From: Bacteroides sp. 51
Lineage (GTDB): Bacteria; Bacteroidota; Bacteroidia; Bacteroidales; Bacteroidaceae
Direction of reading: 5' to 3'
NCBI RefSeq assembly: GCF_010500965.1
Contig: NZ_QVMI01000006.1
Coordinates: 31,976-95,975, forward strand
Length of the DNA: 64,000 nt
Shown piece after piece: positions 2-61,077 of the stretch. Positions within the stretch are counted from its first letter, which is position 1; each line of letters starts with the position of its first letter. Made by a program: the position numbers and the translations under genes. The notes beneath the pieces are model-generated. The model did no database searches, was not told the origin of the DNA, and worked only from the letters and a program-made list of their open reading frames with translations.

Positions 2-1078
2 CTGCTATCGTTAGCGGGTGTTATTCTGATCATCATTTTCTTGTTGAACCTGCGCGAAAAACGTTATCGGAAATCTATCGTAAGTTCGATGGGAAAATAT
101 AAAAAGATTTATGATGAGTATCAGATCGTTTATGAGAATATGCCTATGGGCTTGGTTTTCTTTGATCGGAATGGTGACTTATTGAACCGGAATCAAAGTT
201 CAAATCTCTTTTTTGATAAAGTATCTTCAGATGAACTTGTAGATTTTAATCTTTTCCAGACTACATTGATTGATGACCAATCTAAAAATAGAATAAGAAA
301 GAAATTGCTTGTTAATAAAGTGTTTGAATTTGAAGATCGTAGCTTGCGAATCATTTTCAGGCATATACTGGACGAGGAAAGTGATAGCGAAAATATCCTG
401 ATGATTGTATTGGACTATACCAGCATACAAAAAGAGAAAGTTGCGAAAGAGAGAATATACAGCATCTTTAATTTTGCTATGGATGCTTCTTCTTTGGGAG
501 TTGCGGAATATAATGTAATGGACAATAGCCGGTTTGCTACAGATGCCTGGTATAAGAATCTTTGCATAAATAAAGGAATGGGACATTCGAATGTTTACCG
601 TTCTGTAGTAGAAGAGGATCGTCAGAAGATAGAGTATTTCCTTAAACATATAGGAGAAGACGGTGAAGTTTATTTTGCAGATACAATCCGTGTTAAGGAT
701 GGAAATAAAATACATTGGTTGCAATACGTCATTCAGTTGTTAGAGTACGGTCCTGATGAAGGGCGAATCATTGTGGCTGAACTGGCATTAAATGTTGATA
801 AACAGAAATATAACGAACAAGAGTTGGACAAGGCTTTGCAGGCTGCAAAAGAGTCCGACCGCTTAAAGAATGCATTTATTGCAAATATGAGTAGCGATAT
901 ACGTCCCGCTTTAGATGAGCTTGTTGTTCTCTCAAACCGTTTGATTGAGACGGATAATGAGGAGGAAAAAGAATCATTGATGGTTCGTATAGAACAGAAT
1001 AATGATATGTTGTTGAAGTATGTGGAACGTATCATAGAATTGTCAAGAACAGGTGCAACTAAACAAACAGGGTTATGA
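2..1078 (+). CDS. 5'-truncated sensor-kinase-like protein (TM helix, PAS region, DHp-like helix with Ser in place of the phospho-acceptor His; no ATPase domain)
   Basis: The frame is open from the window edge and reads LLSLAGVILIIIFLL, a TM helix, before the listed Met at 41. The C-terminus NAFIANMSSDIRPALDEL is paralogous to the H-box LANINHEIRTPLNSI of the next gene. The stop overlaps the next start (ATGA). Confidence 0.55.
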   Translation: MLSLAGVILIIIFLLNLREKRYRKSIVSSMGKYKKIYDEYQIVYENMPMGLVFFDRNGDLLNRNQSSNLFFDKVSSDELVDFNLFQTTLIDDQSKNRIRKKLLVNKVFEFEDRSLRIIFRHILDEESDSENILMIVLDYTSIQKEKVAKERIYSIFNFAMDASSLGVAEYNVMDNSRFATDAWYKNLCINKGMGHSNVYRSVVEEDRQKIEYFLKHIGEDGEVYFADTIRVKDGNKIHWLQYVIQLLEYGPDEGRIIVAELALNVDKQKYNEQELDKALQAAKESDRLKNAFIANMSSDIRPALDELVVLSNRLIETDNEEEKESLMVRIEQNNDMLLKYVERIIELSRTGATKQTGL

Positions 1079-3894
1079 AACGACAGATCGTACTCCTATA
1101 TCTTCTATTAATTGCAGTTTTACCTATCTGTGCTCAAACGGTTCAGGTAGATACGACTCATGTTTCTGCACCTAAAGTCTTAATTATCAGTTCTTATCAG
1201 GTAGATACAGATTGGAGCGAGAAGATAATTAATGAGATCGTGGCTAAACTGGAACGCCAGTTTCCGGATATTCATGTTTTTGTTGGACACATGAATTTGA
1301 ACACCTATACATTACCGGCTAATCCGCTATATACTCTGAGAGCGACTTTGTGGTCTTATGCAGACTCTGATCCAACCACTATTACCGCCGAGGATGGACG
1401 TGTCAATTCATTATTTGCTTCAAGTAAACGTCCGGATGTATTGGTCTTTGTGGGTGATGACGGGTTCTTGTTTTACCAGAATTACGGGCCATGGCTGGGA
1501 CCGTGGAAAGATGTTCCTATTGTGCTTTGTAGCGTAACCGATGAAATAATTAATACCGAGTGGTTATCTGGTAATACTTATAATTTTAATTCTTTAATAC
1601 CCATTGAAGAACGCAGAAATGTTGAGACTTTTGTTAGTGATAGGAGTTTTGGGAACATTGATGCTGGACTTGAATCCAAAAGACATGAGGTCCTTCCAGG
1701 ATATTTGGTTAAGACCGACTATAACCTGACCGGTGTTAAGAATTCATTGCCCATTCGTGAAAATCTGGACTTGATCCACCATTTGATGCCAAACCTGGAA
1801 GAGATTGTATGGGTTGACAATGACTTTTATTCAGCAGCCTATGCTCAATGGTTACTGAAGGGAGAACTCTCTACGAAATACCCGAATGTGAAATTTAGTG
1901 AGATCAGGCAGAACCGATTCAACACAGACTCTATATATAACGAGTTGCTAACTCCCAAATCCAATAGAATATACTTGACTTACTCGTGGGATGTGGATGG
2001 GACATTTAGTAGGCAAACTGATGAGCAGATTCATACTTTATTTACGAATTATGCTAGTGTTCCTTTGTTTTCACTAACCCGGCGTGCTTTATCCAACCCT
2101 TATTGGGTAGGTGGTTATTACAGGCCATATGCGGAATTTGCAGATAAGTCTGTGAAGCAAATATCCCGTGTATTGCATGGGGAGAATGCAAATGATATTC
2201 CTTTTGAGATTGTAAATAGCGGACAGACCACGCTCGATCAACCTCTTTTGAAGAAGTATGGATTGTGGAATGAGTTGAAATCATTGCCAGGTGTTGAGTT
2301 GGTAAATATACCTCCAACCTATTACGAGGAAAATGAAGAACTGATATTGGCTTCTGTAATTGTAGGCGCTATTATATTAGGATTGTTGGCCTATTGGATC
2401 AGTAGAAACCGGTATACCCGGAAAGTTCATAAGGAATACATGCGCTATCGGAAGTTATATAACAAACTTCACCTGATTTATGGGCATACTTCCACGGATT
2501 TGGCTTTATATGATAAAGAAGGGAAACTCATCTTTAGTATATCAAAAGGTCGGGAGCAAATCTTTGGTGGAGATAAAGGAGGAGTCTTTTCCGATAATTT
2601 ATTCGAGAATTCGAATCTGAGTCACAAATTGAGAGAGCAATTACGGAATAATCAATCTATCAATAGTGAAGTGACGGTTTATGTAGAAGGAGAACTGTCA
2701 TCTGTAGATTCCGAAAGAAAGGTTTACCAGTTAATGGTTAAACCATTGAGTGACGAGAATACCCAATCTGCCAAATATGTAGCAATTGCTATTAACCTTA
2801 ATCAGATTATTCGTGAACGTGAAGAGCGTGAACGTTTTGAGAACCTGGTACGTTTTGCTTCGGATTCTTCTCAGATGGGGATTGCTTTCTATAGTCTTGA
2901 GACAGGAGAGGGAACGGCTACCAACTCTTGGTATAGCAACTTGAATGAACAAATTGCACCGGGATTATTGCCGACTTATGAACACGTCGTATCCGAAGAT
3001 CGCAATGTACTGATCGGTTACCGGGAAAGAGTCCGGGCGGGTGAGATACTCCCTCCTTTAAATAAAGATATCCGTGTGCTAGATGAAAATGGCGAGGAAC
3101 ACTGGATTACGCAGCATATCTTCACGAATCACAGTGATCGTAAGATGCTGATTGAATTGAATCTGAATATTGATGAGCAAAAGAAAGCCGAAACAGTCTT
3201 GCTATCGGCAAAGGAAAAAGTAGAGCACTCTATTATTGAGACACAGAACTTCCTGGCTAATATCAATCATGAGATTCGTACTCCATTAAATAGTATTGTC
3301 GGTTTCTCGGCAATATTGGCTGCAAGTGAGAGCGAAGAAGAGAGAAAAGAGCATGTTTCTTTGATTCTGAAGAACAATAAACTGCTTACGATGCTTATTG
3401 ACGATGTAATTGAGTTGTCAAGAATAGACTCGGGACAAACGACTTTCGGGTGGGAACCTGTCAAGGTGGATGATTTATTCAGAAAGGTGATGATGACAGG
3501 ATATTCAGACCTGTATGACAAGCAACTGAATGTTGTACTGGATTTGGATAAAACCCACCCGATTGTCTATACGGATTCCGAAGCACTTTTCCGGTTGCTG
3601 AAGAATTTGTTCTCCAATGCGATCAAGTTTACACACGAGGGTAGTGTTACCTTGGGATATCGCATGAAACATGATTGCTATTATTTCTTCGTGAAGGATA
3701 CCGGTTGTGGTATCGATATTAAAGATCAGAAACGTATATTTAAGCGTTTCGATAAACTGGATTCTTATGCTCAGGGAACCGGCCTAGGACTTGCTTTATG
3801 TAAGAGCATAGTAGAGCATCTGGATGGTAAGATTGGTGTGGATTCCGAATTAAGAGAAGGAAGCACATTCTGGTTTGAACTTCCTATTCAATAA
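1075..3894 (+). CDS. Sensor histidine kinase (signal peptide, periplasmic domain, TM, PAS, HisKA, HATPase_c)
   Basis: N-terminal signal peptide, a TM segment LILASVIVGAIILGLLAYWI, H-box HEIRTPLNSIVGFS, and G-boxes DTGCGI and GTGLGLALCKSIVE. Confidence 0.85.
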   Translation: MKRQIVLLYLLLIAVLPICAQTVQVDTTHVSAPKVLIISSYQVDTDWSEKIINEIVAKLERQFPDIHVFVGHMNLNTYTLPANPLYTLRATLWSYADSDPTTITAEDGRVNSLFASSKRPDVLVFVGDDGFLFYQNYGPWLGPWKDVPIVLCSVTDEIINTEWLSGNTYNFNSLIPIEERRNVETFVSDRSFGNIDAGLESKRHEVLPGYLVKTDYNLTGVKNSLPIRENLDLIHHLMPNLEEIVWVDNDFYSAAYAQWLLKGELSTKYPNVKFSEIRQNRFNTDSIYNELLTPKSNRIYLTYSWDVDGTFSRQTDEQIHTLFTNYASVPLFSLTRRALSNPYWVGGYYRPYAEFADKSVKQISRVLHGENANDIPFEIVNSGQTTLDQPLLKKYGLWNELKSLPGVELVNIPPTYYEENEELILASVIVGAIILGLLAYWISRNRYTRKVHKEYMRYRKLYNKLHLIYGHTSTDLALYDKEGKLIFSISKGREQIFGGDKGGVFSDNLFENSNLSHKLREQLRNNQSINSEVTVYVEGELSSVDSERKVYQLMVKPLSDENTQSAKYVAIAINLNQIIREREERERFENLVRFASDSSQMGIAFYSLETGEGTATNSWYSNLNEQIAPGLLPTYEHVVSEDRNVLIGYRERVRAGEILPPLNKDIRVLDENGEEHWITQHIFTNHSDRKMLIELNLNIDEQKKAETVLLSAKEKVEHSIIETQNFLANINHEIRTPLNSIVGFSAILAASESEEERKEHVSLILKNNKLLTMLIDDVIELSRIDSGQTTFGWEPVKVDDLFRKVMMTGYSDLYDKQLNVVLDLDKTHPIVYTDSEALFRLLKNLFSNAIKFTHEGSVTLGYRMKHDCYYFFVKDTGCGIDIKDQKRIFKRFDKLDSYAQGTGLGLALCKSIVEHLDGKIGVDSELREGSTFWFELPIQ

Positions 3895-5908: not shown

Positions 5909-7093
5909 TTATTTCAGATTCTCCTGAACTCTTCTGAGCGCTTCTGCCAACTTATCTTCTTTGCAACAAAGGGATATGCGGATATATCGTGCTCCGTTAC
6001 TTCCGAATATAAATCCGGGCGTAAGGAAAACCCGTGCCTGGTGAAGAACCTTCTCGGTTAGTTCTTCTACGTTTGCGCAAGACTCGGGTATTTTTCCCCA
6101 GAGGAACATACCCACTTGTTTTTCATCATATGTGCAATCTAGTGCTTTCATGATCTCTCCGGCTAGCTGGCGGCGTCCGCGATAGTTTTTGTTATTTCCT
6201 TCATACCATTCCGGTCCGGCTTCAAGAGCTTTGGCGGCGGCAAGTTGTGTAGCTTTGAATATTCCGCTTTCGATATTGCTTGCTACTTTCAAAATCCATC
6301 CGATAAACTCTGCATTGGAAGCCAACATCCCGATTCTCCATCCTGGCATATTGTGGCTTTTACTCATCGAGTTCAATTCAATGCAGCACTCTTTGGCACC
6401 GGGTACGGACAGTATACTTAACGGCTTGTTGTTTAGAATGAAACTGTATGGGTTGTCATTAACAACAACGATTCCTTTTTGTTTGGCGAATTCCACCAGT
6501 CGTTCATACAATTCGGGAGTCGCGTTGGCACCTGTGGGCATGTTGGGATAGTTCACCCACATCAGTTTCACCCGGCTCAGGTCCATTTGCTCCAGTTCAT
6601 CGAAATCGGGCATCCATCCGTTTTCTTCTTTTAAGTTGTAGTTCACTACATCTGCTCCAAGAAGTTTGCTGAGCGAAGTATAGGTTGGGTATCCCGGATT
6701 GGGAACCAATACCTGATCGCCCGGATTGACGAATGCCAGCGTAATATGGAGAATTCCTTCTTTTGAACCGATTAACGGTTGTATTTCGTTAGCAGGGTTT
6801 AGGTCTACGTTATACCATGCTTTATACCAATTGGAGAGTCCATTGCGTAGTTCGGGAATACCGATGTGCAGCTGATATCCATGTCCATTAGGGTCCCAGG
6901 CACTGTCGCAAAGCGTTTGGATTACTTCATCGGCTGGTGGCATATCGGGGCTACCGATTCCCAGGCTGATTACATCTTTACCTTCCGCGTTCATCTGCGC
7001 TACTTCTTTTAGTTTCTTCGAGAAGTAGTATTCGCTCACCTCAGTCAACCTGTTGGCCGGGGCTATTTTATATACTTGATTTTCCTTCTGCAT
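5909..7093 (-). CDS. Class I/II PLP-dependent aminotransferase (probable aromatic/prephenate aminotransferase)
   Basis: Aminotran_1_2 signature SMSKSHNMPGWRIGM with the PLP lysine. Sits inside the phe/tyr operon. Confidence 0.8.
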   Translation of the reverse strand: MQKENQVYKIAPANRLTEVSEYYFSKKLKEVAQMNAEGKDVISLGIGSPDMPPADEVIQTLCDSAWDPNGHGYQLHIGIPELRNGLSNWYKAWYNVDLNPANEIQPLIGSKEGILHITLAFVNPGDQVLVPNPGYPTYTSLSKLLGADVVNYNLKEENGWMPDFDELEQMDLSRVKLMWVNYPNMPTGANATPELYERLVEFAKQKGIVVVNDNPYSFILNNKPLSILSVPGAKECCIELNSMSKSHNMPGWRIGMLASNAEFIGWILKVASNIESGIFKATQLAAAKALEAGPEWYEGNNKNYRGRRQLAGEIMKALDCTYDEKQVGMFLWGKIPESCANVEELTEKVLHQARVFLTPGFIFGSNGARYIRISLCCKEDKLAEALRRVQENLK

Positions 7094-7910
7094 ATTCGCC
7101 TAATGTTTTGAGTTCTTTGGTTAATGGGGTGATGGCTGTAATGGCCTGTTTGTATCTCAGGTAATCGTTGAACACCACATCTACGTAAAACAGGTATTCC
7201 CATTCCCGTCCGATGATGGGGAGTGATTGTATTTTGGTTAAATTGATGTTGTAGAATGAAAGAATGGATAATACCTGCGACAGGCTTCCTTCGGTGTGTG
7301 GTAACGAAAATACGATGTTGGCTTTGTCTATACTTTGGTTTTTCCGTACTTCGTTTGCCCGCCAGGAGTCCGATACAACCAGAAAACGGGTGAAGTTGTG
7401 TTTGTTTGTTTCTATGCCTTCCTGTAAGATTTTCATGCCGTAAAGTTCGGCTGCTGCTTTGGAACAGATGGCAGCGTGTCCTTTCAGGTTTTCTTTTTTG
7501 ATGGTTTCTGCGCTGCGTGCCGTATCTTCGCCTTCTACTACTTTTATGTGCGGATGCTGATTCAGGAAGTCGCGGCATTGCATCAGGGCGATGGGGTGGG
7601 AGTTGACTTCTGTAATATCGTCCCAGTCTTCATTGGGCAGACAAACAAAGCAATGTGAGATGCGTAGCTTGTATTCTCCAATGATTTGCGTATTGCTTTG
7701 GCGCAATAGTTCGTTGTTCTGGAGCAGGCTTCCGGCAATTGTATTCTCGATGGCGAGCATACCGATCACATCTGCGTCGTTCTTCATTGTTTTGAAGATG
7801 TCTTCAAAACTCTTGCAGCAGATTAGTTCTATTTTCTCTTCGCCCGCATATCGGTGCGCTGCAATGTCGTGGTACGACCCTAATGTTCCCTGAATAGCGA
7901 TTCTTTTCAT
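7068..7910 (-). CDS. pheA: Prephenate dehydratase with C-terminal ACT domain
   Basis: PDT-domain similarity and a C-terminal ACT-like region. Overlaps the aminotransferase gene by 26 nt, consistent with an operon. Confidence 0.8.
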   Translation of the reverse strand: MKRIAIQGTLGSYHDIAAHRYAGEEKIELICCKSFEDIFKTMKNDADVIGMLAIENTIAGSLLQNNELLRQSNTQIIGEYKLRISHCFVCLPNEDWDDITEVNSHPIALMQCRDFLNQHPHIKVVEGEDTARSAETIKKENLKGHAAICSKAAAELYGMKILQEGIETNKHNFTRFLVVSDSWRANEVRKNQSIDKANIVFSLPHTEGSLSQVLSILSFYNINLTKIQSLPIIGREWEYLFYVDVVFNDYLRYKQAITAITPLTKELKTLGEYAEGKSSI

Positions 7911-7923
7911 CTTACTTGTTTGA

Positions 7924-7958
7924 ATAAAAAAATCCCGCGTCCTTTCGGAGCGGGATTC
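7924..7958 (-). terminator. Intrinsic terminator (attenuator stem-loop) 13 nt upstream of the pheA start
   Basis: Minus strand reads AATCCCGCTCCGAAAGGACGCGGGATTTTTTTATT: a GC stem followed by a T7 run, immediately before the ATG at 7910. Confidence 0.75.
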
Positions 7959-7992
7959 TATGTTTATGATTGATTCTGATTTTAGATCATCT

Positions 7993-8079
7993 TTATTTTA
8001 TACATACGCATTCCCGCTCTACTTTCTGGCTAAAGTAAAAGTAAAAAAAGAAAGAATATGTATAAGCGAATAAGTTCAT
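7993..8079 (-). CDS. Phe/Tyr-rich leader peptide (28 aa) of the phe/tyr operon
   Basis: Hand-translated minus strand gives MNLFAYTYSFFFYFYFSQKVERECVCIK*. Ten of 28 residues are Phe or Tyr. It lies between a TAnnTTTG promoter box and the terminator above. Confidence 0.7.
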   Translation of the reverse strand: MNLFAYTYSFFFYFYFSQKVERECVCIK

Positions 8080-8107
8080 CTGGTGACTTTTTTCTTTAAT
8101 TCTTGGG

Positions 8108-8115
8108 CAAAGGTA
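8108..8115 (-). promoter_or_regulatory. Bacteroides-type -7 promoter box (TACCTTTG) for the leader/phe operon
   Basis: Minus strand TACCTTTG matches the TAnnTTTG consensus, about 30 nt upstream of the leader ATG. Confidence 0.5.
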
Positions 8116-8200
8116 ATACTTTTCTATTAAAAGCAAGAAAAAACTGATATTTTTTTATTCTTTAGTGCATTTAATGGGAAAATTGTTGTTGTTTTAGGCT

Positions 8201-8707
8201 TTACCACATTAATACTATATAGAAGGTTGTCGGATCTTCCGGTTTCAGTTGGGTGTTAAAATCAGAATATGTCAGATAGAAGCCGACCCAACCTTCGGAG
8301 TAATCGAAGTCATATGTTTGAGTCCATATGAATTCTTTTCCATTGTCGCCGGTTCCGCCTTTATGTAAAACGTAGGGCATGCCGTTCTTATAGCCGTCAT
8401 CGGTTTTAATGTAGGCAATGACTGCTCGTTCTTTGAATATGTCTTTGGTGAGTTCGGGCAGTTTCCTGTCTACAAGAAAGAAAGAATTTAGTTCGCCCGG
8501 AGTACCTACCAGTTCCCACTCGTGAGGCTGAATGGTGAATGTTTTTGTAAGCCAGTTTGTGCCAATACCATCCTTGCCGTCTTTTCCATCCATTCCGTCT
8601 CTTCCATTCATTCCATCCATTCCGGAAGGTCCCATAGGACCGACTGGTCCTTCACACGCCATAAATGATATGGCTAACGCTAATAATAAGAATACTCTTT
8701 TCATCAT
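8201..8707 (-). CDS. Lipoprotein with a collagen-like GXY repeat segment
   Basis: Signal peptide plus lipobox (FMAC). GPVGPMGPSGMDGMNGRDGMDGKDGKDG is 9-10 consecutive G-X-Y triplets. Confidence 0.7.
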   Translation of the reverse strand: MMKRVFLLLALAISFMACEGPVGPMGPSGMDGMNGRDGMDGKDGKDGIGTNWLTKTFTIQPHEWELVGTPGELNSFFLVDRKLPELTKDIFKERAVIAYIKTDDGYKNGMPYVLHKGGTGDNGKEFIWTQTYDFDYSEGWVGFYLTYSDFNTQLKPEDPTTFYIVLMW

Positions 8708-8736: not shown

Positions 8737-10035
8737 TTATCGGCCGCTACGTCCACTTTCGGAACTACGGCTGCTGTTGCGCTGTTGTTCTTCGCGTTGA
8801 CGCGTTTCGGTTTCCCGTCTTTCTCTTTCCTGACGTTCTTGTACTTCTCTTTGCCTGCGTGATTCTGCTTCTTGTCGTTCGCGTTGTTGGCGTTGCTGTT
8901 CTTCTTGTTGTCTACGGTTCTCGGCTTCCCGGCGTTCTTGCTCCTGGCGTTCTTGCGCTTCTCTTTGTCTGCGCGCTTCGGCTTCTTGCCGTTCGCGTTG
9001 CTGGCGGTCTTGTTCTTCGCGTTGTCTACGGTTTTCTGCTTCCCGGCGTTCTTGCTCCTGACGTTCTTGCGCTTCTCTTTGTCTGCGCGCTTCGGCTTCC
9101 TGTCGTTCGCGTTGCTGACGGTCTTGTTCTTCGCGTTGTCTGCGGTTTTCGGTATCTCTGCGCTCTTGTTCCTGACGTGCTTGCGCTTCTTTTTGTCTGC
9201 GCGCTTCGGCTTCCTGACGTTCGTTGTCTCTCGAATTGGTTTCTCTTTCAGATTCGCGTTCAATATTAATATTCTCCGGTTTAGTCACCGATTCGGGAAT
9301 GGGCCTGGACGGATTTCTTTCTCCTATTGGGCTGCTTGGCTTAGTTACGGACTCCGGCGTTGGTCTTTGAGGTGATCTGTCGCTATTCGATTGGTTGTCT
9401 TTGCCTCTGCCAGGACGTTCCGCCGGCGGTTGGGGTTTATGCTCATGGCCAGGTCGCTCGGGTTTTGGTTTGCCGGGTTTGTTTGGTTTATTCGGCCTGT
9501 TTGGCTTGTTGGGTTTTATGGGTTTATGGGGTTTGTTTACCCACCCCGGATGATGGGAGTATGAGTAATCCGGATAATAATAATCCATAAAGAGATAATC
9601 AGTAATATAATTTTCAGTAAAAATGGGGTAGTAATCATTATGGTATATGGGTGAACTGTTTTCTATATAATAACTTTCGTTATTGAGATAAGGATAGTTA
9701 TCTTCGGGTATATCATAATTGTCATCCGGATAGTCGCCTATCAGAATGCTTGGAGTTTCTTCATATACGGGGTTCGCAGATTCATGATCGGGTAATGGCG
9801 ATTGATCCTTGTTTGTGTTTTGTATATTATTACTTTTGTTGTGCGATACCGTTTCGCTTTTCTTACTGATACTTTCGCTGTTCACAGTAAGAGAATCTTC
9901 TGTTTCCTGAACGATTTCAGTATTGCTAACAGTGGGACTCGGGGTTTTCACACTTTCTCTTTCTACCGTGTTTCTGCAACTTAGTTGTAAAAACAATATG
10001 CATAGCATGCATGTGTATAAGTTTAGCCGTTTCAT
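8737..10035 (-). CDS. Lipoprotein with a PNK-rich linker and 39-aa E/R/Q-rich tandem repeats (predicted single alpha-helix region)
   Basis: Lipobox LQLSC. KPNKPNRPNKPNKPGKP linker. ERQEAEARRQREAQERQEQERREAENRRQREEQDRQQR is repeated about 3.3 times. Confidence 0.7.
   Translation of the reverse strand: MKRLNLYTCMLCILFLQLSCRNTVERESVKTPSPTVSNTEIVQETEDSLTVNSESISKKSETVSHNKSNNIQNTNKDQSPLPDHESANPVYEETPSILIGDYPDDNYDIPEDNYPYLNNESYYIENSSPIYHNDYYPIFTENYITDYLFMDYYYPDYSYSHHPGWVNKPHKPIKPNKPNRPNKPNKPGKPKPERPGHEHKPQPPAERPGRGKDNQSNSDRSPQRPTPESVTKPSSPIGERNPSRPIPESVTKPENINIERESERETNSRDNERQEAEARRQKEAQARQEQERRDTENRRQREEQDRQQRERQEAEARRQREAQERQEQERREAENRRQREEQDRQQRERQEAEARRQREAQERQEQERREAENRRQQEEQQRQQRERQEAESRRQREVQERQERERRETETRQREEQQRNSSRSSESGRSGR
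8830..9200. repeat. 117-nt tandem repeat array (about 3.2 copies) inside the lipoprotein CDS
   Basis: Near-identical 117-nt units are visible in the sequence. They produce the spurious overlapping ORFs on both strands. Confidence 0.8.
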
Positions 10036-32788: not shown

Positions 32789-35332
32789 ATGAAACAACAC
32801 TTCAAATCAACCGCGCTTCTGGCATATTCTTTATTCATAGCGATATGCTCTTTTGCACAAGATATTTCCCTGAATGGCAAGTGGAAGTTCAGAACTGATT
32901 ATAATAATATGGGATATTCCGAACAATGGTTTTCCCCGTCGGCCTCTACTGCCGGATGGGATACGATGGATGTACCCGGATGTTGGAACACCCGCCGCGA
33001 ATATTCCCAGTATACTGGTGTCGCTTGGTATCAAACTCAATTCAATTATAATGAAAACTTGAATGGCGATGATCTTATCCTCTTCTTTGAAGCGGTTTAC
33101 AGCGATGCCGAAGTTTGGTTCAACGGAACAAAGCTAGGTTCGCACGATTTCGGATTCACTTCCTTTGAGTTTGATGTAACTCAACTCATTAAGCAGGGAG
33201 TAAGCAATACGATTACTCTAAGAGTTGATAATACGTTCAAACTGGGAGCTACCTGGAACTGGGGTGGTATAAGACGTCCCGTAACCCTGCGCAGACTTCC
33301 CGCCCAACGAATTGAGGACTTGGTGGTTACAACCAACATCGACTTAAAGAAACGTAGTGCGCAAATAAATGTACTTACCGAATTGCACCAGGTTGCCGAT
33401 GGCGCTACCCTTATTCTCGAAATAAAAGATGCATCCAAACGTACCGTAGCTACTGCTAAAAAGAAAGTAGCGAATGGTGTGAAAGAACAACCTTTTTCCT
33501 GTAACCTGAATAAGGTAAACCTTTGGGGATTCGATACGCCATACCTATATACTGCCGAAGTTTCTCTGGAAGAAAAAGGTAAAACCATCCATAGCGCCTC
33601 TACTCGTTTCGGTGTGCGCAAAGTTGAAATAGATGGTTACAAGCTACTCCTCAACGGTGAAAGCGTTCGGTTGAACGGCGCCAACTATGTACCCGAAGAC
33701 CGTTTTACCGGTAGCACTCTTCCCGAAGAAGTCTTCCGTAAGGATATAGACCTGATGAAAGAATGCGGAGTCAATATGGCCCGCCTTAGCCACCTCGGTT
33801 TGCCGAAAGAAGTACTCGATTACATCGACGAAAAAGGGATGCTTATCTTTGAAGAAATTCCTTTGTGGAACAGAAATAAACTACTCGAAGCCGATCATCC
33901 CGTACCGATGCGCTGGCTTACCGAGCTTATCACCCAACGCCGCAACCACCCATGTATCATTGGTTGGAGTGCAGGTAACGAGATTGGCCGTTTCAGCGAC
34001 AATCCGCATATTACCGAATACCTGGTGTCGGCGTTCAAACATATACGTAGCCTTGATCCTACCCGATTGGCTGTATATGTAACCCATACTGCTGCAAGAC
34101 AGGATAACGAACCTGCGGAACTTTCGGACATCATCATGCTTAACCAGTATGGGGGTCCGGGATTCCACGGGGAAAGAGCTGCGATTGCTCACCGTTTCTA
34201 TCCTTCCAAACCGATATTCTACTGTGAATACGGGCATAAAATCAATAGTGACGATTTGAATAACAACATTGCAGATTTTGCCGGAATGGTTGAAGGCATG
34301 CGCGGGTATGAATACCTGATCGGTGCATCCGTATGGACATTCAATGATTATCGTAGCAATTACAGAGACAATGCCACGGCTGCTACGCAGAACCGTCCGT
34401 GGGGTGTGGTCGATGTCTTCCGTCACAAAAAAAGAGGGTACACACTGTTGCAGCGCGAGAACTCTCCTGTAAAGAACCTGGAGTTAAATGTAAGTACCGG
34501 AAACGATTCCGGTGCCATCGAAGGAACGATCATCCTGACTCCAAGAGAAACACTGGATCTTCCCGCCTTTAATCTGAGAGGATATAACTTAGCGTTTACC
34601 GCGCAAGATATCAACGGTAATACATTGTCGGAACAGTCTGTTTCTTTACCCGAGATCAAAGTCGGAAGCGATGCGCGTAACTTCAACTTTAAACTTGAAG
34701 GAAAAGATATAGCCTGGATTACCGCAGAACTTGTAACTCCTACAGGCTATACGGTAGACTTGCGCCGGGAGGAACTCGTAAAACCTGCCGCACCTGTTAT
34801 CTCGCATGTTGAGGCCGCACAATATAGTATAAGAATTCATTTTGATAAAGCGCCGTCGGCCACACAGTGGTATGCAAGATATGGCATTGGACAGTTAGAC
34901 CAGCAAACACCGCTTACCATCAATGATTATATCCAGTTCGGTGGTATATATGAAGGCCACCCCGGGAGCCTTGCATATAATACAACCTATTCCGTACAAC
35001 TGGTAGCCGTTAATGATTGTGGAGAAACCGTCTCGGAACAAACCGCCCAGATCAAAACACTGGCTGCCGAATTGCCGCCTGTGATAAACTACTTACGACA
35101 ATACAAAGATGAGATACATGTCGGATATCTTTCGGAGAACGCGGATTTCATTTATGAATTCGAATACGGAACCGATCCGCAGAACCTGTCCGAATACATA
35201 CTCACCACCGAAACCGGAGCCTGTACGCTACCGGCGGTAAAAGGGGAGGCGCCTTATTATCTCCGGGTAAAGAAACGTATCAATTACGGATACGAAAGCC
35301 AATGGAGCAAACTCTATAAAGTAAAACTATAA
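32789..35332 (+). CDS. Glycoside hydrolase family 2 with C-terminal Ig/FN3-like domains
   Basis: GH2 sugar-binding N-domain (NGKWKFRTD...WYQTQF), an Ig-like domain and a TIM-barrel region (GWSAGNE acid/base segment). Confidence 0.75.
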   Translation: MKQHFKSTALLAYSLFIAICSFAQDISLNGKWKFRTDYNNMGYSEQWFSPSASTAGWDTMDVPGCWNTRREYSQYTGVAWYQTQFNYNENLNGDDLILFFEAVYSDAEVWFNGTKLGSHDFGFTSFEFDVTQLIKQGVSNTITLRVDNTFKLGATWNWGGIRRPVTLRRLPAQRIEDLVVTTNIDLKKRSAQINVLTELHQVADGATLILEIKDASKRTVATAKKKVANGVKEQPFSCNLNKVNLWGFDTPYLYTAEVSLEEKGKTIHSASTRFGVRKVEIDGYKLLLNGESVRLNGANYVPEDRFTGSTLPEEVFRKDIDLMKECGVNMARLSHLGLPKEVLDYIDEKGMLIFEEIPLWNRNKLLEADHPVPMRWLTELITQRRNHPCIIGWSAGNEIGRFSDNPHITEYLVSAFKHIRSLDPTRLAVYVTHTAARQDNEPAELSDIIMLNQYGGPGFHGERAAIAHRFYPSKPIFYCEYGHKINSDDLNNNIADFAGMVEGMRGYEYLIGASVWTFNDYRSNYRDNATAATQNRPWGVVDVFRHKKRGYTLLQRENSPVKNLELNVSTGNDSGAIEGTIILTPRETLDLPAFNLRGYNLAFTAQDINGNTLSEQSVSLPEIKVGSDARNFNFKLEGKDIAWITAELVTPTGYTVDLRREELVKPAAPVISHVEAAQYSIRIHFDKAPSATQWYARYGIGQLDQQTPLTINDYIQFGGIYEGHPGSLAYNTTYSVQLVAVNDCGETVSEQTAQIKTLAAELPPVINYLRQYKDEIHVGYLSENADFIYEFEYGTDPQNLSEYILTTETGACTLPAVKGEAPYYLRVKKRINYGYESQWSKLYKVKL

Positions 35333-61030: not shown

Positions 61031-61077
61031 AACAGCTTGTGTCGATCTCCGGTACAAGCTGTTGCTATTTTTGTTTT
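61031..61077 (+). terminator. Rho-independent terminator after GH92
   Basis: AACAGCTTGT-13 nt-ACAAGCTGTT followed by GCTATTTTTGTTTT. Confidence 0.7.

Follow-up and report, generated by a model that had tools for sequence, protein, structure and literature searches.

The sequence just upstream of pheA in Bacteroides sp. 51 is, with a probability that we put at roughly 0.85, a ribosome-mediated (leader-peptide) transcription attenuator of the pheA operon, responding to charged tRNA-Phe and tRNA-Tyr. The operon encodes prephenate dehydratase (pheA), an aminotransferase, a 3-deoxy-D-arabino-heptulosonate 7-phosphate (DAHP) synthase fused to a chorismate mutase (DAHPS/CM), and prephenate dehydrogenase (tyrA). 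The window, as we call the whole 64,000-nucleotide (nt) stretch analyzed here, is taken from assembly GCF_010500965.1 (contig NZ_QVMI01000006.1, positions 31,976 to 95,975), and coordinates are positions within it unless a locus or another genome is named. An earlier note on this DNA had proposed a candidate phenylalanine/tyrosine (Phe/Tyr) leader-peptide attenuator at this place, and its testable predictions at the level of sequence all turned out as expected. The parts of the leader are listed below.

8108..8115, minus strand: -7 promoter box TACCTTTG (consensus TAnnTTTG, Bacteroidota type), from the sequence
8080..8107, minus strand: short A-rich 5' untranslated region (UTR) and initiation region of the leader open reading frame (ORF), without a Shine-Dalgarno sequence, from base composition over 77 leaders
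7993..8079, minus strand: leader ORF (pheL-like), 28 codons plus stop, peptide MNLFAYTYSFFFYFYFSQKVERECVCIK, from the sequence and the open-frame list
8032..8070, minus strand: regulatory codon cluster, codons 4 to 16 (F.Y.Y.FFFYFYF), from the sequence
8052-8032, minus strand: core run FFFYFYF, from the sequence
8037..8065, minus strand: region 1, the 5' strand of the 1:2 hairpin, overlapping the Phe/Tyr codons, from the minimum free energy (MFE) structure
7998..8026, minus strand: region 2, the 3' strand of the 1:2 hairpin, whose core GAGCGGGA (8019-8012) is the antiterminator strand, from folding and pairing
7948..7955, minus strand: region 3 core TCCCGCTC, common to the antiterminator (2:3) and the terminator (3:4), from pairing and covariation
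7926..7958, minus strand: intrinsic terminator, an 11- to 12-bp G+C-rich hairpin plus T7, from sequence, folding, and covariation

Comparisons were made with 80 related loci, one genome per species, found by a scan with a PheA alignment among at least 586 GTDB matches to pheA. They come from Bacteroides, Phocaeicola, Mediterranea, Paraprevotella, Prevotellamassilia, and rumen or gut metagenome-assembled genomes (MAGs), and their PheA proteins show 67 to 82% identity to that of the window. The closest PheA matches of all are from Bacteroidaceae, with "Mediterranea sp." at 88 to 90% identity and Bacteroides at about 82%. Enough upstream sequence was present in 76 of the 80 loci, giving 77 orthologous leaders with that of the window, and these were aligned with MAFFT. 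The other four contigs are truncated, and in two of them (L034 and L037) the 3' part of the Phe- and Tyr-rich (F/Y) ORF is still visible.

Promoter, leader ORF, and terminator

The -7 box ends 28 nt before the leader ATG (8079-8077), close to the spacing of about 30 nt given in the earlier note, and transcription is predicted to start a few nucleotides past the box, at about 8099 to 8103. A TAnnTTTG box lies upstream of the leader start in 73 of the 77 leaders and ends 21 to 46 nt (mode, 28 nt) before the start codon. The start codon context is rich in A and poor in G, with A at -11 to -15 in 45 to 57 of the 77 leaders and at +4 in 74, in agreement with the A-rich initiation regions without a Shine-Dalgarno sequence described for Bacteroidetes (Baez et al. 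2019, PMC6847099). A transcription start site (TSS) upstream of the mini-ORF, without which the proposal would have fallen, is known in Bacteroides thetaiotaomicron. There, differential RNA sequencing (dRNA-seq) places a TSS at 5111397, 34 nt upstream of the predicted small ORF sORF_00347 (5111277-5111363, minus strand; peptide MKSFSYAYYFFFYFYFSQKVEREFVCIK) (Ryan et al. 2020, PMC7366714, supplementary file 5). This small ORF is the direct orthologue of the window's leader ORF; it lies upstream of the prephenate dehydratase gene and shares the identical nucleotide core TTTTACTTTTACTTTAGCCAGAAAGTAGAGCGGGA, and the two peptides differ at 6 of 28 residues. The leader ORF is thus a short ORF at the 5' end of its transcript, past the promoter box in the window and past the mapped start in B. 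thetaiotaomicron.

The ORF itself is as the earlier note had read it: 6 Phe and 4 Tyr codons make up 10 of its 28 codons, FFFYFYF among them. It is contained in a TTG-started ORF (7993..8136) of the open-frame list. Its codons for amino acids that the operon makes are clustered to an unusual degree, with 8 F/Y in 9 codons, a density found in no other of the 586 ATG-started ORFs of 12 to 60 codons on both strands of the window, the runner-up having 6. Across about 460 kb from the 80 related loci, counting both strands, ORFs with 7 or more F/Y in 9 codons occur nowhere but just upstream of pheA. The region is AT rich and short ORFs are common, as the 586 in the window attest, and an ORF could have arisen by chance in a T-rich intergenic region beside an ordinary terminator. 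However, the ORF is unique in the window, nothing comparable stands elsewhere in the 80 loci, and all 77 orthologous leaders have it, comparative data that for practical purposes already refute a chance origin.

The terminator hairpin, (G)AATCCCGCTCC-GAAA-GGA-C-GCGGGATT at 7958-7930, has a GAAA loop and a 1-nt bulge, and its 3' end enters the T7 run at 7932-7926. The G+C-rich stem and T7 described in the earlier note are therefore present, but their distance from the pheA ATG (7910) is 15 nt, not 13 nt. The calculated energy of the hairpin (3:4) is -19.0 kcal/mol, and a scan combining T-runs with RNAfold gives -17.4 kcal/mol. A promoter and terminator scan that apparently requires an ungapped stem did not report the terminator at 7926-7958, most likely because of the bulge, and negative results of that scan call for corresponding caution. 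Over the 77 leaders the main stem is 91% paired, with seven pairs changed on both sides. An intrinsic terminator thus separates the leader ORF from the first structural gene, as it does in attenuators of this class.

Conservation of the leader ORF

An F/Y-rich ORF lies about 145 to 195 nt upstream of pheA in 77 of 77 leaders. The earlier note had made conservation of the mini-ORF in related genomes a test of its proposal, and its loss from orthologous leaders would have spoken against it; no leader lacks it. An in-frame start without an intervening stop codon is likewise present in all 77 (ATG in 76 and GTG in one, L035), against 17 and 5 of 77 in the other two frames. Gaps within the ORF span 3, 6, or 9 alignment columns, all multiples of three. 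Every leader has both kinds of codon, with 4 to 9 for Phe and 3 to 6 for Tyr. Upstream of the 15-mer TTTTACTTTTACTTT, the codons differ from lineage to lineage and are still Phe and Tyr codons, as in YAYYFFF, TYFFFFYY, SYFFFYFYF, and AYYY.

The leaders fall into two architectures. In 65 of them, the window's included, a long ORF runs through region 2 and stops 21 to 56 nt (mode, 24 nt) past the start of the region 2 core. In the other 12, mostly from rumen and gut MAGs, a short ORF of 17 or 18 codons stops 3 to 7 nt before GAGCGGG, and GAGCGGG is kept. Nucleotides past the stop codon of the short ORFs are still conserved, and the conservation of "KVEREFVCIK" is therefore at the level of RNA and not of peptide. 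This bears on the suggestion that the ORF encodes a functional small hydrophobic peptide to which the adjoining terminator is unrelated. Apparent conservation within Bacteroides is indeed strong and extends to the C-terminal ...KVEREFVCIK, which favors such a peptide. But the 12 short ORFs end before that part while its nucleotides persist, the N-terminal residues vary freely except for F/Y, and distant lineages share the aromatic run alone. In addition, a search of 15 billion collected proteins did not find the leader peptides, and four representative ones have no match in Pfam or NCBIfam at an E value of 10 or less. We consider a functional peptide highly improbable.

The 15-mer TTTTACTTTTACTTT (8032-8046, minus strand) deserves mention in its own right. 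It is nearly invariant over the 77 leaders even at synonymous positions, with TAC and never TAT, and it uses TTT, though the operon genes favor TTC by 32 to 19. Its first TACTTT lies within the 1:2 helix, and its second can pair with AAAGTA in a small hairpin. The invariance probably reflects a combination of dual coding and structural constraint. No other exact match to the 15-mer occurs in the window, and two other sites match it with two mismatches each.

Mutually exclusive pairings in the leader RNA

The 200-nt leader folds more stably than dinucleotide shuffles of it (z = -4.0). Folding, which the earlier note had suggested as a way to look for alternative structures, gave three of them. 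The MFE structure of the full-length leader contains a long 1:2 hairpin, in which the Phe/Tyr codons pair with AAAGUAGAGCGGGAAUGCGUAUGUAUA, together with the terminator. With the transcript truncated ahead of region 4, and 30 nt around any codon of the F/Y run blocked in imitation of a stalled ribosome, the MFE structure includes the 2:3 helix. GAGCGGGA, the codons for E-R-E, forms the core of that helix; it is exactly complementary to TCCCGCTC, part of the terminator's 5' arm, with which it makes eight Watson-Crick pairs. The 1:2 helix has an energy of -20.4 kcal/mol and the 2:3 core one of -12.2 kcal/mol. The models thus indicate an antiterminator that excludes the terminator and that a stalled ribosome would free.

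The antiterminator is 97.4% paired over the 77 leaders, compared with 29 to 51% when the partner strand is slid by one to three columns, and its pairing and covariation scores were reached by none of 500 shuffles. At its outer pair, 40 leaders have G-C and 32 have A-U, and two further pairs are changed on both sides in L062 and L071, as double compensatory substitutions. From the alignment alone, RNAalifold predicted a single consensus helix, 2:3, and so arrived independently at the pairing between the E-R-E codons and the terminator arm that the earlier note had proposed; that pairing is both conserved and accompanied by compensatory changes. The 1:2 helix is 80% paired over the same leaders, against 45 to 62% in slid controls; this hairpin is present in the predicted structure, with support that comes mainly from conserved pairing potential, its covariation being weak.

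In L062 and L071 (both at 2160-2500), two complete units of F/Y leader ORF plus terminator stand in series before pheA. The first unit has its own TATCTTTG box, an ORF for the peptide MKRCFGYTYFFYFYFNER (L062 2198-2254), and the pairings AACGGGATTT / AAATCCCGTT / GACGGGATTTTTT. The second starts about 15 nt past the first T-run, and has an ORF for MIQRFFRFYGYYFFYF... (2336-2446) and the pairings GGTGGGA / TCCCACC / GTGGGAA+T7. The arrangement resembles a tandem attenuator and as such would make the response sharper. A second F/Y ORF was found only in these two of the 80 loci and not in the other 78.

Leaders of distant pheA genes

Representatives of more distant PheA proteins were gathered by an exhaustive HMMER search, and ten lineages, all on metagenomic contigs, were sampled. 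Six of the ten, with PheA identities of 46 to 59%, have an aromatic leader ORF, a terminator, and a stretch after the aromatic codons that pairs with the 5' arm of the terminator. Their leader peptides are as follows.

L081: PheA identity 57%, leader peptide MNNASFAFSFWFYFYFIR
L083: PheA identity 59%, leader peptide MQTNSFYYALSFYGFYQYFTDNAPVSLCR
L084: PheA identity 53%, leader peptide MTRFSGSYFYYFYFNHIDD
L082: PheA identity 46%, leader peptide MQKITYIRLYFRIYFQVLE
L085: PheA identity 46%, leader peptide MLASNYNFYFFAFYYFFGVPKGGD
L086 / L087: PheA identity 46%, leader peptide MKMKLTQTYFWFYPTLSTGG

The region 2/region 3 pairs in these lineages, such as GGCAGGA/TCCTGCC, ATGGGAT/ATCCCAT, and ACGGGAGG/CCTCCCGT, are unrelated in sequence to those of the window. 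The same 1:2, 2:3, and 3:4 logic is rebuilt there from other sequences, and this is in our judgment the strongest argument from covariation. TAnnTTTG boxes also occur in several of the distant lineages. Two of the distant leaders have a Trp codon inside the aromatic run, FWFYFYF in L081 (about 148-205) and YFWFY in L086 (about 1336-1398), which suggests that these leaders may sense all three aromatic amino acids.

The window's leader is rather likely to be one member of a large, uncatalogued family of attenuators that extends across much of the Bacteroidota (77 of 77 Bacteroidaceae-type leaders and six of the ten distant lineages sampled), integrates the charging of two aromatic tRNAs (with that of tRNA-Trp added in some), and occurs in tandem in some lineages.

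Family searches and the alternative of regulation by RNA alone

The Rfam model of the Escherichia coli Phe leader, RF01859 (Phe_leader), matches the element with 20.7 bits (E = 0.75), far from its gathering threshold of 55 bits, which makes the element either an analogue of the E. coli pheL-pheA attenuator or a relative too diverged to be detected. The orthologous region of B. thetaiotaomicron likewise has a subthreshold Phe_leader match of 19.4 bits, at 5111192-5111338, overlapping sORF_00347 (PMC7366714, supplementary file 4). At gathering thresholds, no Rfam family matched anywhere in the window. A permissive search (E of 10 or less) of 7700-8400 gave only subthreshold matches, to Phe_leader and to Arrc14, PyrR, and others, the latter lying mostly on the terminator. 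T-box leaders and amino acid riboswitches were not found at an E of 10 or less in 7700-8400, nor at gathering score in the window. There is no Rfam, Pfam, or NCBIfam model for this attenuator.

These searches bear on a second class of explanation, in which the leader is an RNA-only or factor-dependent switch that senses a metabolite, an uncharged tRNA, or an RNA-binding protein, in the manner of a riboswitch, a T-box, or a TRAP- or PyrR-like system, and the ORF is incidental to a U-rich strand. The near invariance of TTTTACTTTTACTTT, even at synonymous positions, implies a strong constraint on the coding strand at the level of RNA, and the weak, subthreshold Rfam matches to PyrR and other leaders fall at the same place. 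Against this, no Rfam family reaches its threshold, neither T-box nor riboswitch, and several properties of the ORF speak for a role of its own: the in-frame start in 77 of 77 leaders compared with 5 to 17 in the other frames, indels in multiples of three, codons upstream of the invariant 15-mer that vary yet stay Phe or Tyr, and a start codon context that suits a Bacteroidetes initiation region. Furthermore, distant lineages retain the aromatic codons while the paired sequences are wholly changed, and the spacer between regions 2 and 3 is variable, with no large conserved structure resembling an aptamer. We judge a switch that bypasses translation to be very unlikely.

The operon and the genes upstream of it

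The four minus-strand genes that follow the leader are those that the earlier note had named as a pheA-aminotransferase-aroG/CM-tyrA operon.

7068..7910, minus strand: pheA, prephenate dehydratase with an ACT domain, the first structural gene (PF00800, E = 4e-56; NF008865)
7093-5909, minus strand: class I/II aminotransferase, from family matches
5846-4785, minus strand: DAHP synthase fused to chorismate mutase, from family matches
4779-4006, minus strand: prephenate dehydrogenase, from family matches

With these genes the transcription unit serves the synthesis of Phe as well as Tyr, and the aromatic pathway's first committed step is among its reactions. The mixture of Phe and Tyr codons in the leader fits an operon with enzymes of both branches, as had been argued. 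By tblastn, the aminotransferase was found in 80 of the 80 related loci, DAHPS/CM in 74, and prephenate dehydrogenase in 55, the last two counts being limited by flank length. Gene order after pheA is unchanged in the seven loci whose coordinates were inspected.

The window's two genes upstream of the leader were found by tblastn in none of the 80 related loci. The upstream genes differ and the leader is constant, and the leader therefore belongs to pheA. Between the promoter box and the stop codon (8201) of the nearer gene there is no terminator, so the leader hairpin would also block read-through from upstream. This, and the short distance from the terminator to the pheA ATG, at which it could influence initiation, favor an explanation in which the hairpin and T-run form a constitutive partial terminator or insulator and the leader ORF has some other output, such as Rho access, mRNA stability, or initiation of pheA translation. 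However, the 5' arm of the terminator is the exact and covarying partner of region 2, which a constitutive terminator would not need, and the leader stays constant while the genes upstream vary. Here, too, we see only a slight chance that the explanation holds.

Proposed mechanism

In the attenuator that we favor, transcription would start just past the -7 box, and a ribosome would load on the A-rich leader without a Shine-Dalgarno sequence and translate the 28-codon ORF before RNA polymerase has finished the leader. Translation of the ORF, its coupling to transcription, and the response of read-through to Phe and Tyr are the inferred steps of this scheme. When Phe-tRNA or Tyr-tRNA is scarce, the ribosome would stall in the FFFYFYF run, in region 1. 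From the start of the last Phe codon to the region 2 core GAGCGGGA is a distance of 15 nt, and the footprint of a ribosome extends about 14 nt downstream; a stalled ribosome would therefore leave region 2 just free. The spacing resembles that in the E. coli trp leader. Free region 2 would pair with region 3 (TCCCGCTC) as it emerges, the terminator would not form, and transcription would continue into pheA.

With both amino acids plentiful, the ribosome would pass over region 2 to the stop codon and leave. Region 2 would then lie under the ribosome or return to its pairing with region 1 (1:2), 3:4 would form, and transcription would end at T7. The two architectures would reach this outcome in different ways. 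In the 12 short-ORF leaders, region 2 would be hidden under a ribosome that has reached the stop codon, as it is in E. coli, and in the 65 long-ORF leaders, termination would follow from passage of the ribosome over region 2 or from re-formation of 1:2 behind it. A change of GAGCGGGA to GAGCCCGA would, if the mechanism is right, be expected to give superattenuation.

A number of observations weigh against this reading. With about -12 kcal/mol and a loop of about 56 nt to close, the antiterminator core is the weaker structure beside the terminator (-19 kcal/mol), and full-length RNA at equilibrium favors the terminator even when a ribosome is stalled on it; the switch must therefore be kinetic, as in classical attenuators, for which we regard such behavior as normal. 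In the long-ORF architecture, that of the window included, a ribosome on the stop codon leaves the region 2 core uncovered, and termination therefore depends on refolding of 1:2. Covariation in 1:2 is little beyond what U-rich and purine-rich strands give by themselves. The main exchange of G-C for A-U in 2:3 may represent few evolutionary events. Four of the distant lineages, with PheA identities of 41 to 46% (L088, L089/L090, L091/L092, and L093, the last from a 568-kb genome), have no such leader. Finally, a literature search found no experimental report of regulated termination, leader ORF translation, or a short terminated transcript for an element of this kind in any member of the Bacteroidota, and no experimental study of amino acid attenuation in Bacteroides.

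Relation to known attenuators and to previous reports

The mechanism is of a textbook type, and the leader reveals no new principle. In E. coli, a single leader peptide integrates the charging of several tRNAs in the thr leader (Thr and Ile) and in the ilvGMEDA and ilvBN leaders (Ile, Val, and Leu), each ahead of an operon whose products lead to more than one amino acid. The present leader differs from these in its amino acids, Phe and Tyr, with Trp in some distant lineages, in belonging to another phylum, and in having no sequence relationship to them. Attenuators from Bacteroidetes/Chlorobi are said to have been mentioned by Vitreschak et al. in 2004. The leader resembles E. coli pheL-pheA (RF01859), which also has a leader ORF with a Phe run and 1:2, 2:3, and 3:4 pairings just upstream of the prephenate dehydratase gene. 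The E. coli pheL ORF has 15 codons, and the short-ORF variants among the 77 leaders, with 18 codons and a stop just before region 2, are similar to it (Gurvich et al. 2011, PMC3082878). The differences are that the Bacteroides leader mixes Phe and Tyr codons (6 and 4) whereas that of E. coli has Phe alone, that most of the ORFs compared here are longer and run through region 2, that the Bacteroides operon also makes Tyr and includes DAHPS and CM, and that the expression signals are those of Bacteroidota, a -7 TAnnTTTG box and no Shine-Dalgarno sequence.

The Bacteroides case has been noted before, only in passing. Gurvich et al. wrote that Bacteroides "potentially use a pheL gene" (2011, PMC3082878). 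The statement in the earlier note that attenuation is poorly documented in Bacteroidota is thus fair, but the possibility was not unknown. The main text of Ryan et al. (2020, PMC7366714) remarks that some long 5' UTRs hold small ORFs "reminiscent of leader peptides," and sORF_00347 itself stands in that paper only as an entry in lists of predicted small ORFs and Rfam matches, without an attenuator model, a comparative analysis, or a test of regulation. In Flavobacterium psychrophilum, 5' UTR structures gave "strong clues" of leader-peptide attenuation (Guerin et al. 2021, PMC9723704); that case is alike in phylum, in the class of mechanism proposed, and in its position upstream of amino acid biosynthesis operons, a likeness drawn from the description only. 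Naville and Gautheret (2010) mention neither Bacteroidetes nor pheA, and the BtModulome paper mentions only BT3935, within an unrelated iModulon. Tandem cis-regulators are known from Salmonella mgtCBR (PMC3641672) and from tandem riboswitches and T-boxes, and the likeness to them is limited to L062 and L071, two related lineages, the window having a single unit.

Bacteroides and their relatives are dominant in the gut, and the regulation of their amino acid biosynthesis is largely uncharted. The leader is a highly conserved element with proposed control over both the common step catalyzed by DAHP synthase and the Phe and Tyr branches, a concrete and testable regulator, and the alignment of leaders is a basis for the RNA family model that Rfam is missing. 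If the reading is right, attenuation based on the coupling of transcription to translation operates in bacteria whose translation starts without Shine-Dalgarno pairing. Because ribosomes in the phylum take no notice of Shine-Dalgarno sequences, a working ribosome-dependent attenuator would be direct evidence of tight coupling used for regulation. It would also supply a natural Phe/Tyr-responsive part for the engineering of Bacteroides.

Other features of the window

Several PheA database entries of 291 to 297 amino acids (P0026, P0040, and P0002; equivalent in the window to 7911-7960) have an N-terminal extension of 11 to 17 residues (MDAGFFYTIYSIG-, MNPAPNGRGIFLFKVIK-). The extension is the translated terminator hairpin and T-run, MDAGFF... 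corresponding to ATGGACGCGGGATTTTTT. Many database PheA starts are miscalled at an ATG inside the terminator, and the leader explains these misannotated start codons and the reading frames that run from them through the terminator. P0026 alone represents 469 member sequences.

The end of pheA and the start of the aminotransferase gene overlap by 26 nt (7068-7093, minus strand), and an overlap of about 23 nt is found in five of the seven inspected loci, for example, at 3324-3346 in L001. The overlap suggests translational coupling within the operon. Of the two genes upstream of the leader, the nearer (8201-8707, minus strand) encodes 168 amino acids with a weak glycine-rich, collagen-like match only, and the farther (8737-10035, minus strand) encodes 432 amino acids, with no family found for it in Pfam or NCBIfam. 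Together the two may represent a lineage-specific insertion beside the operon. No tRNA genes are present in the window. A 939-amino-acid histidine kinase with an N-terminal ABC-type periplasmic substrate-binding domain (PF04392) is encoded at 1075-3894 on the plus strand, convergent to the end of the aromatic operon and with no apparent link to the leader.

Hairpins followed by T-runs also occur elsewhere in the window, at 61068 and 20792 on the plus strand and at 34433 and 23640 on the minus strand. All four lie outside ATG-started ORFs of at least 100 amino acids, and each is followed within 200 nt, on the same strand, by the start of such an ORF; they could be ordinary terminators of the genes upstream or other leader elements.

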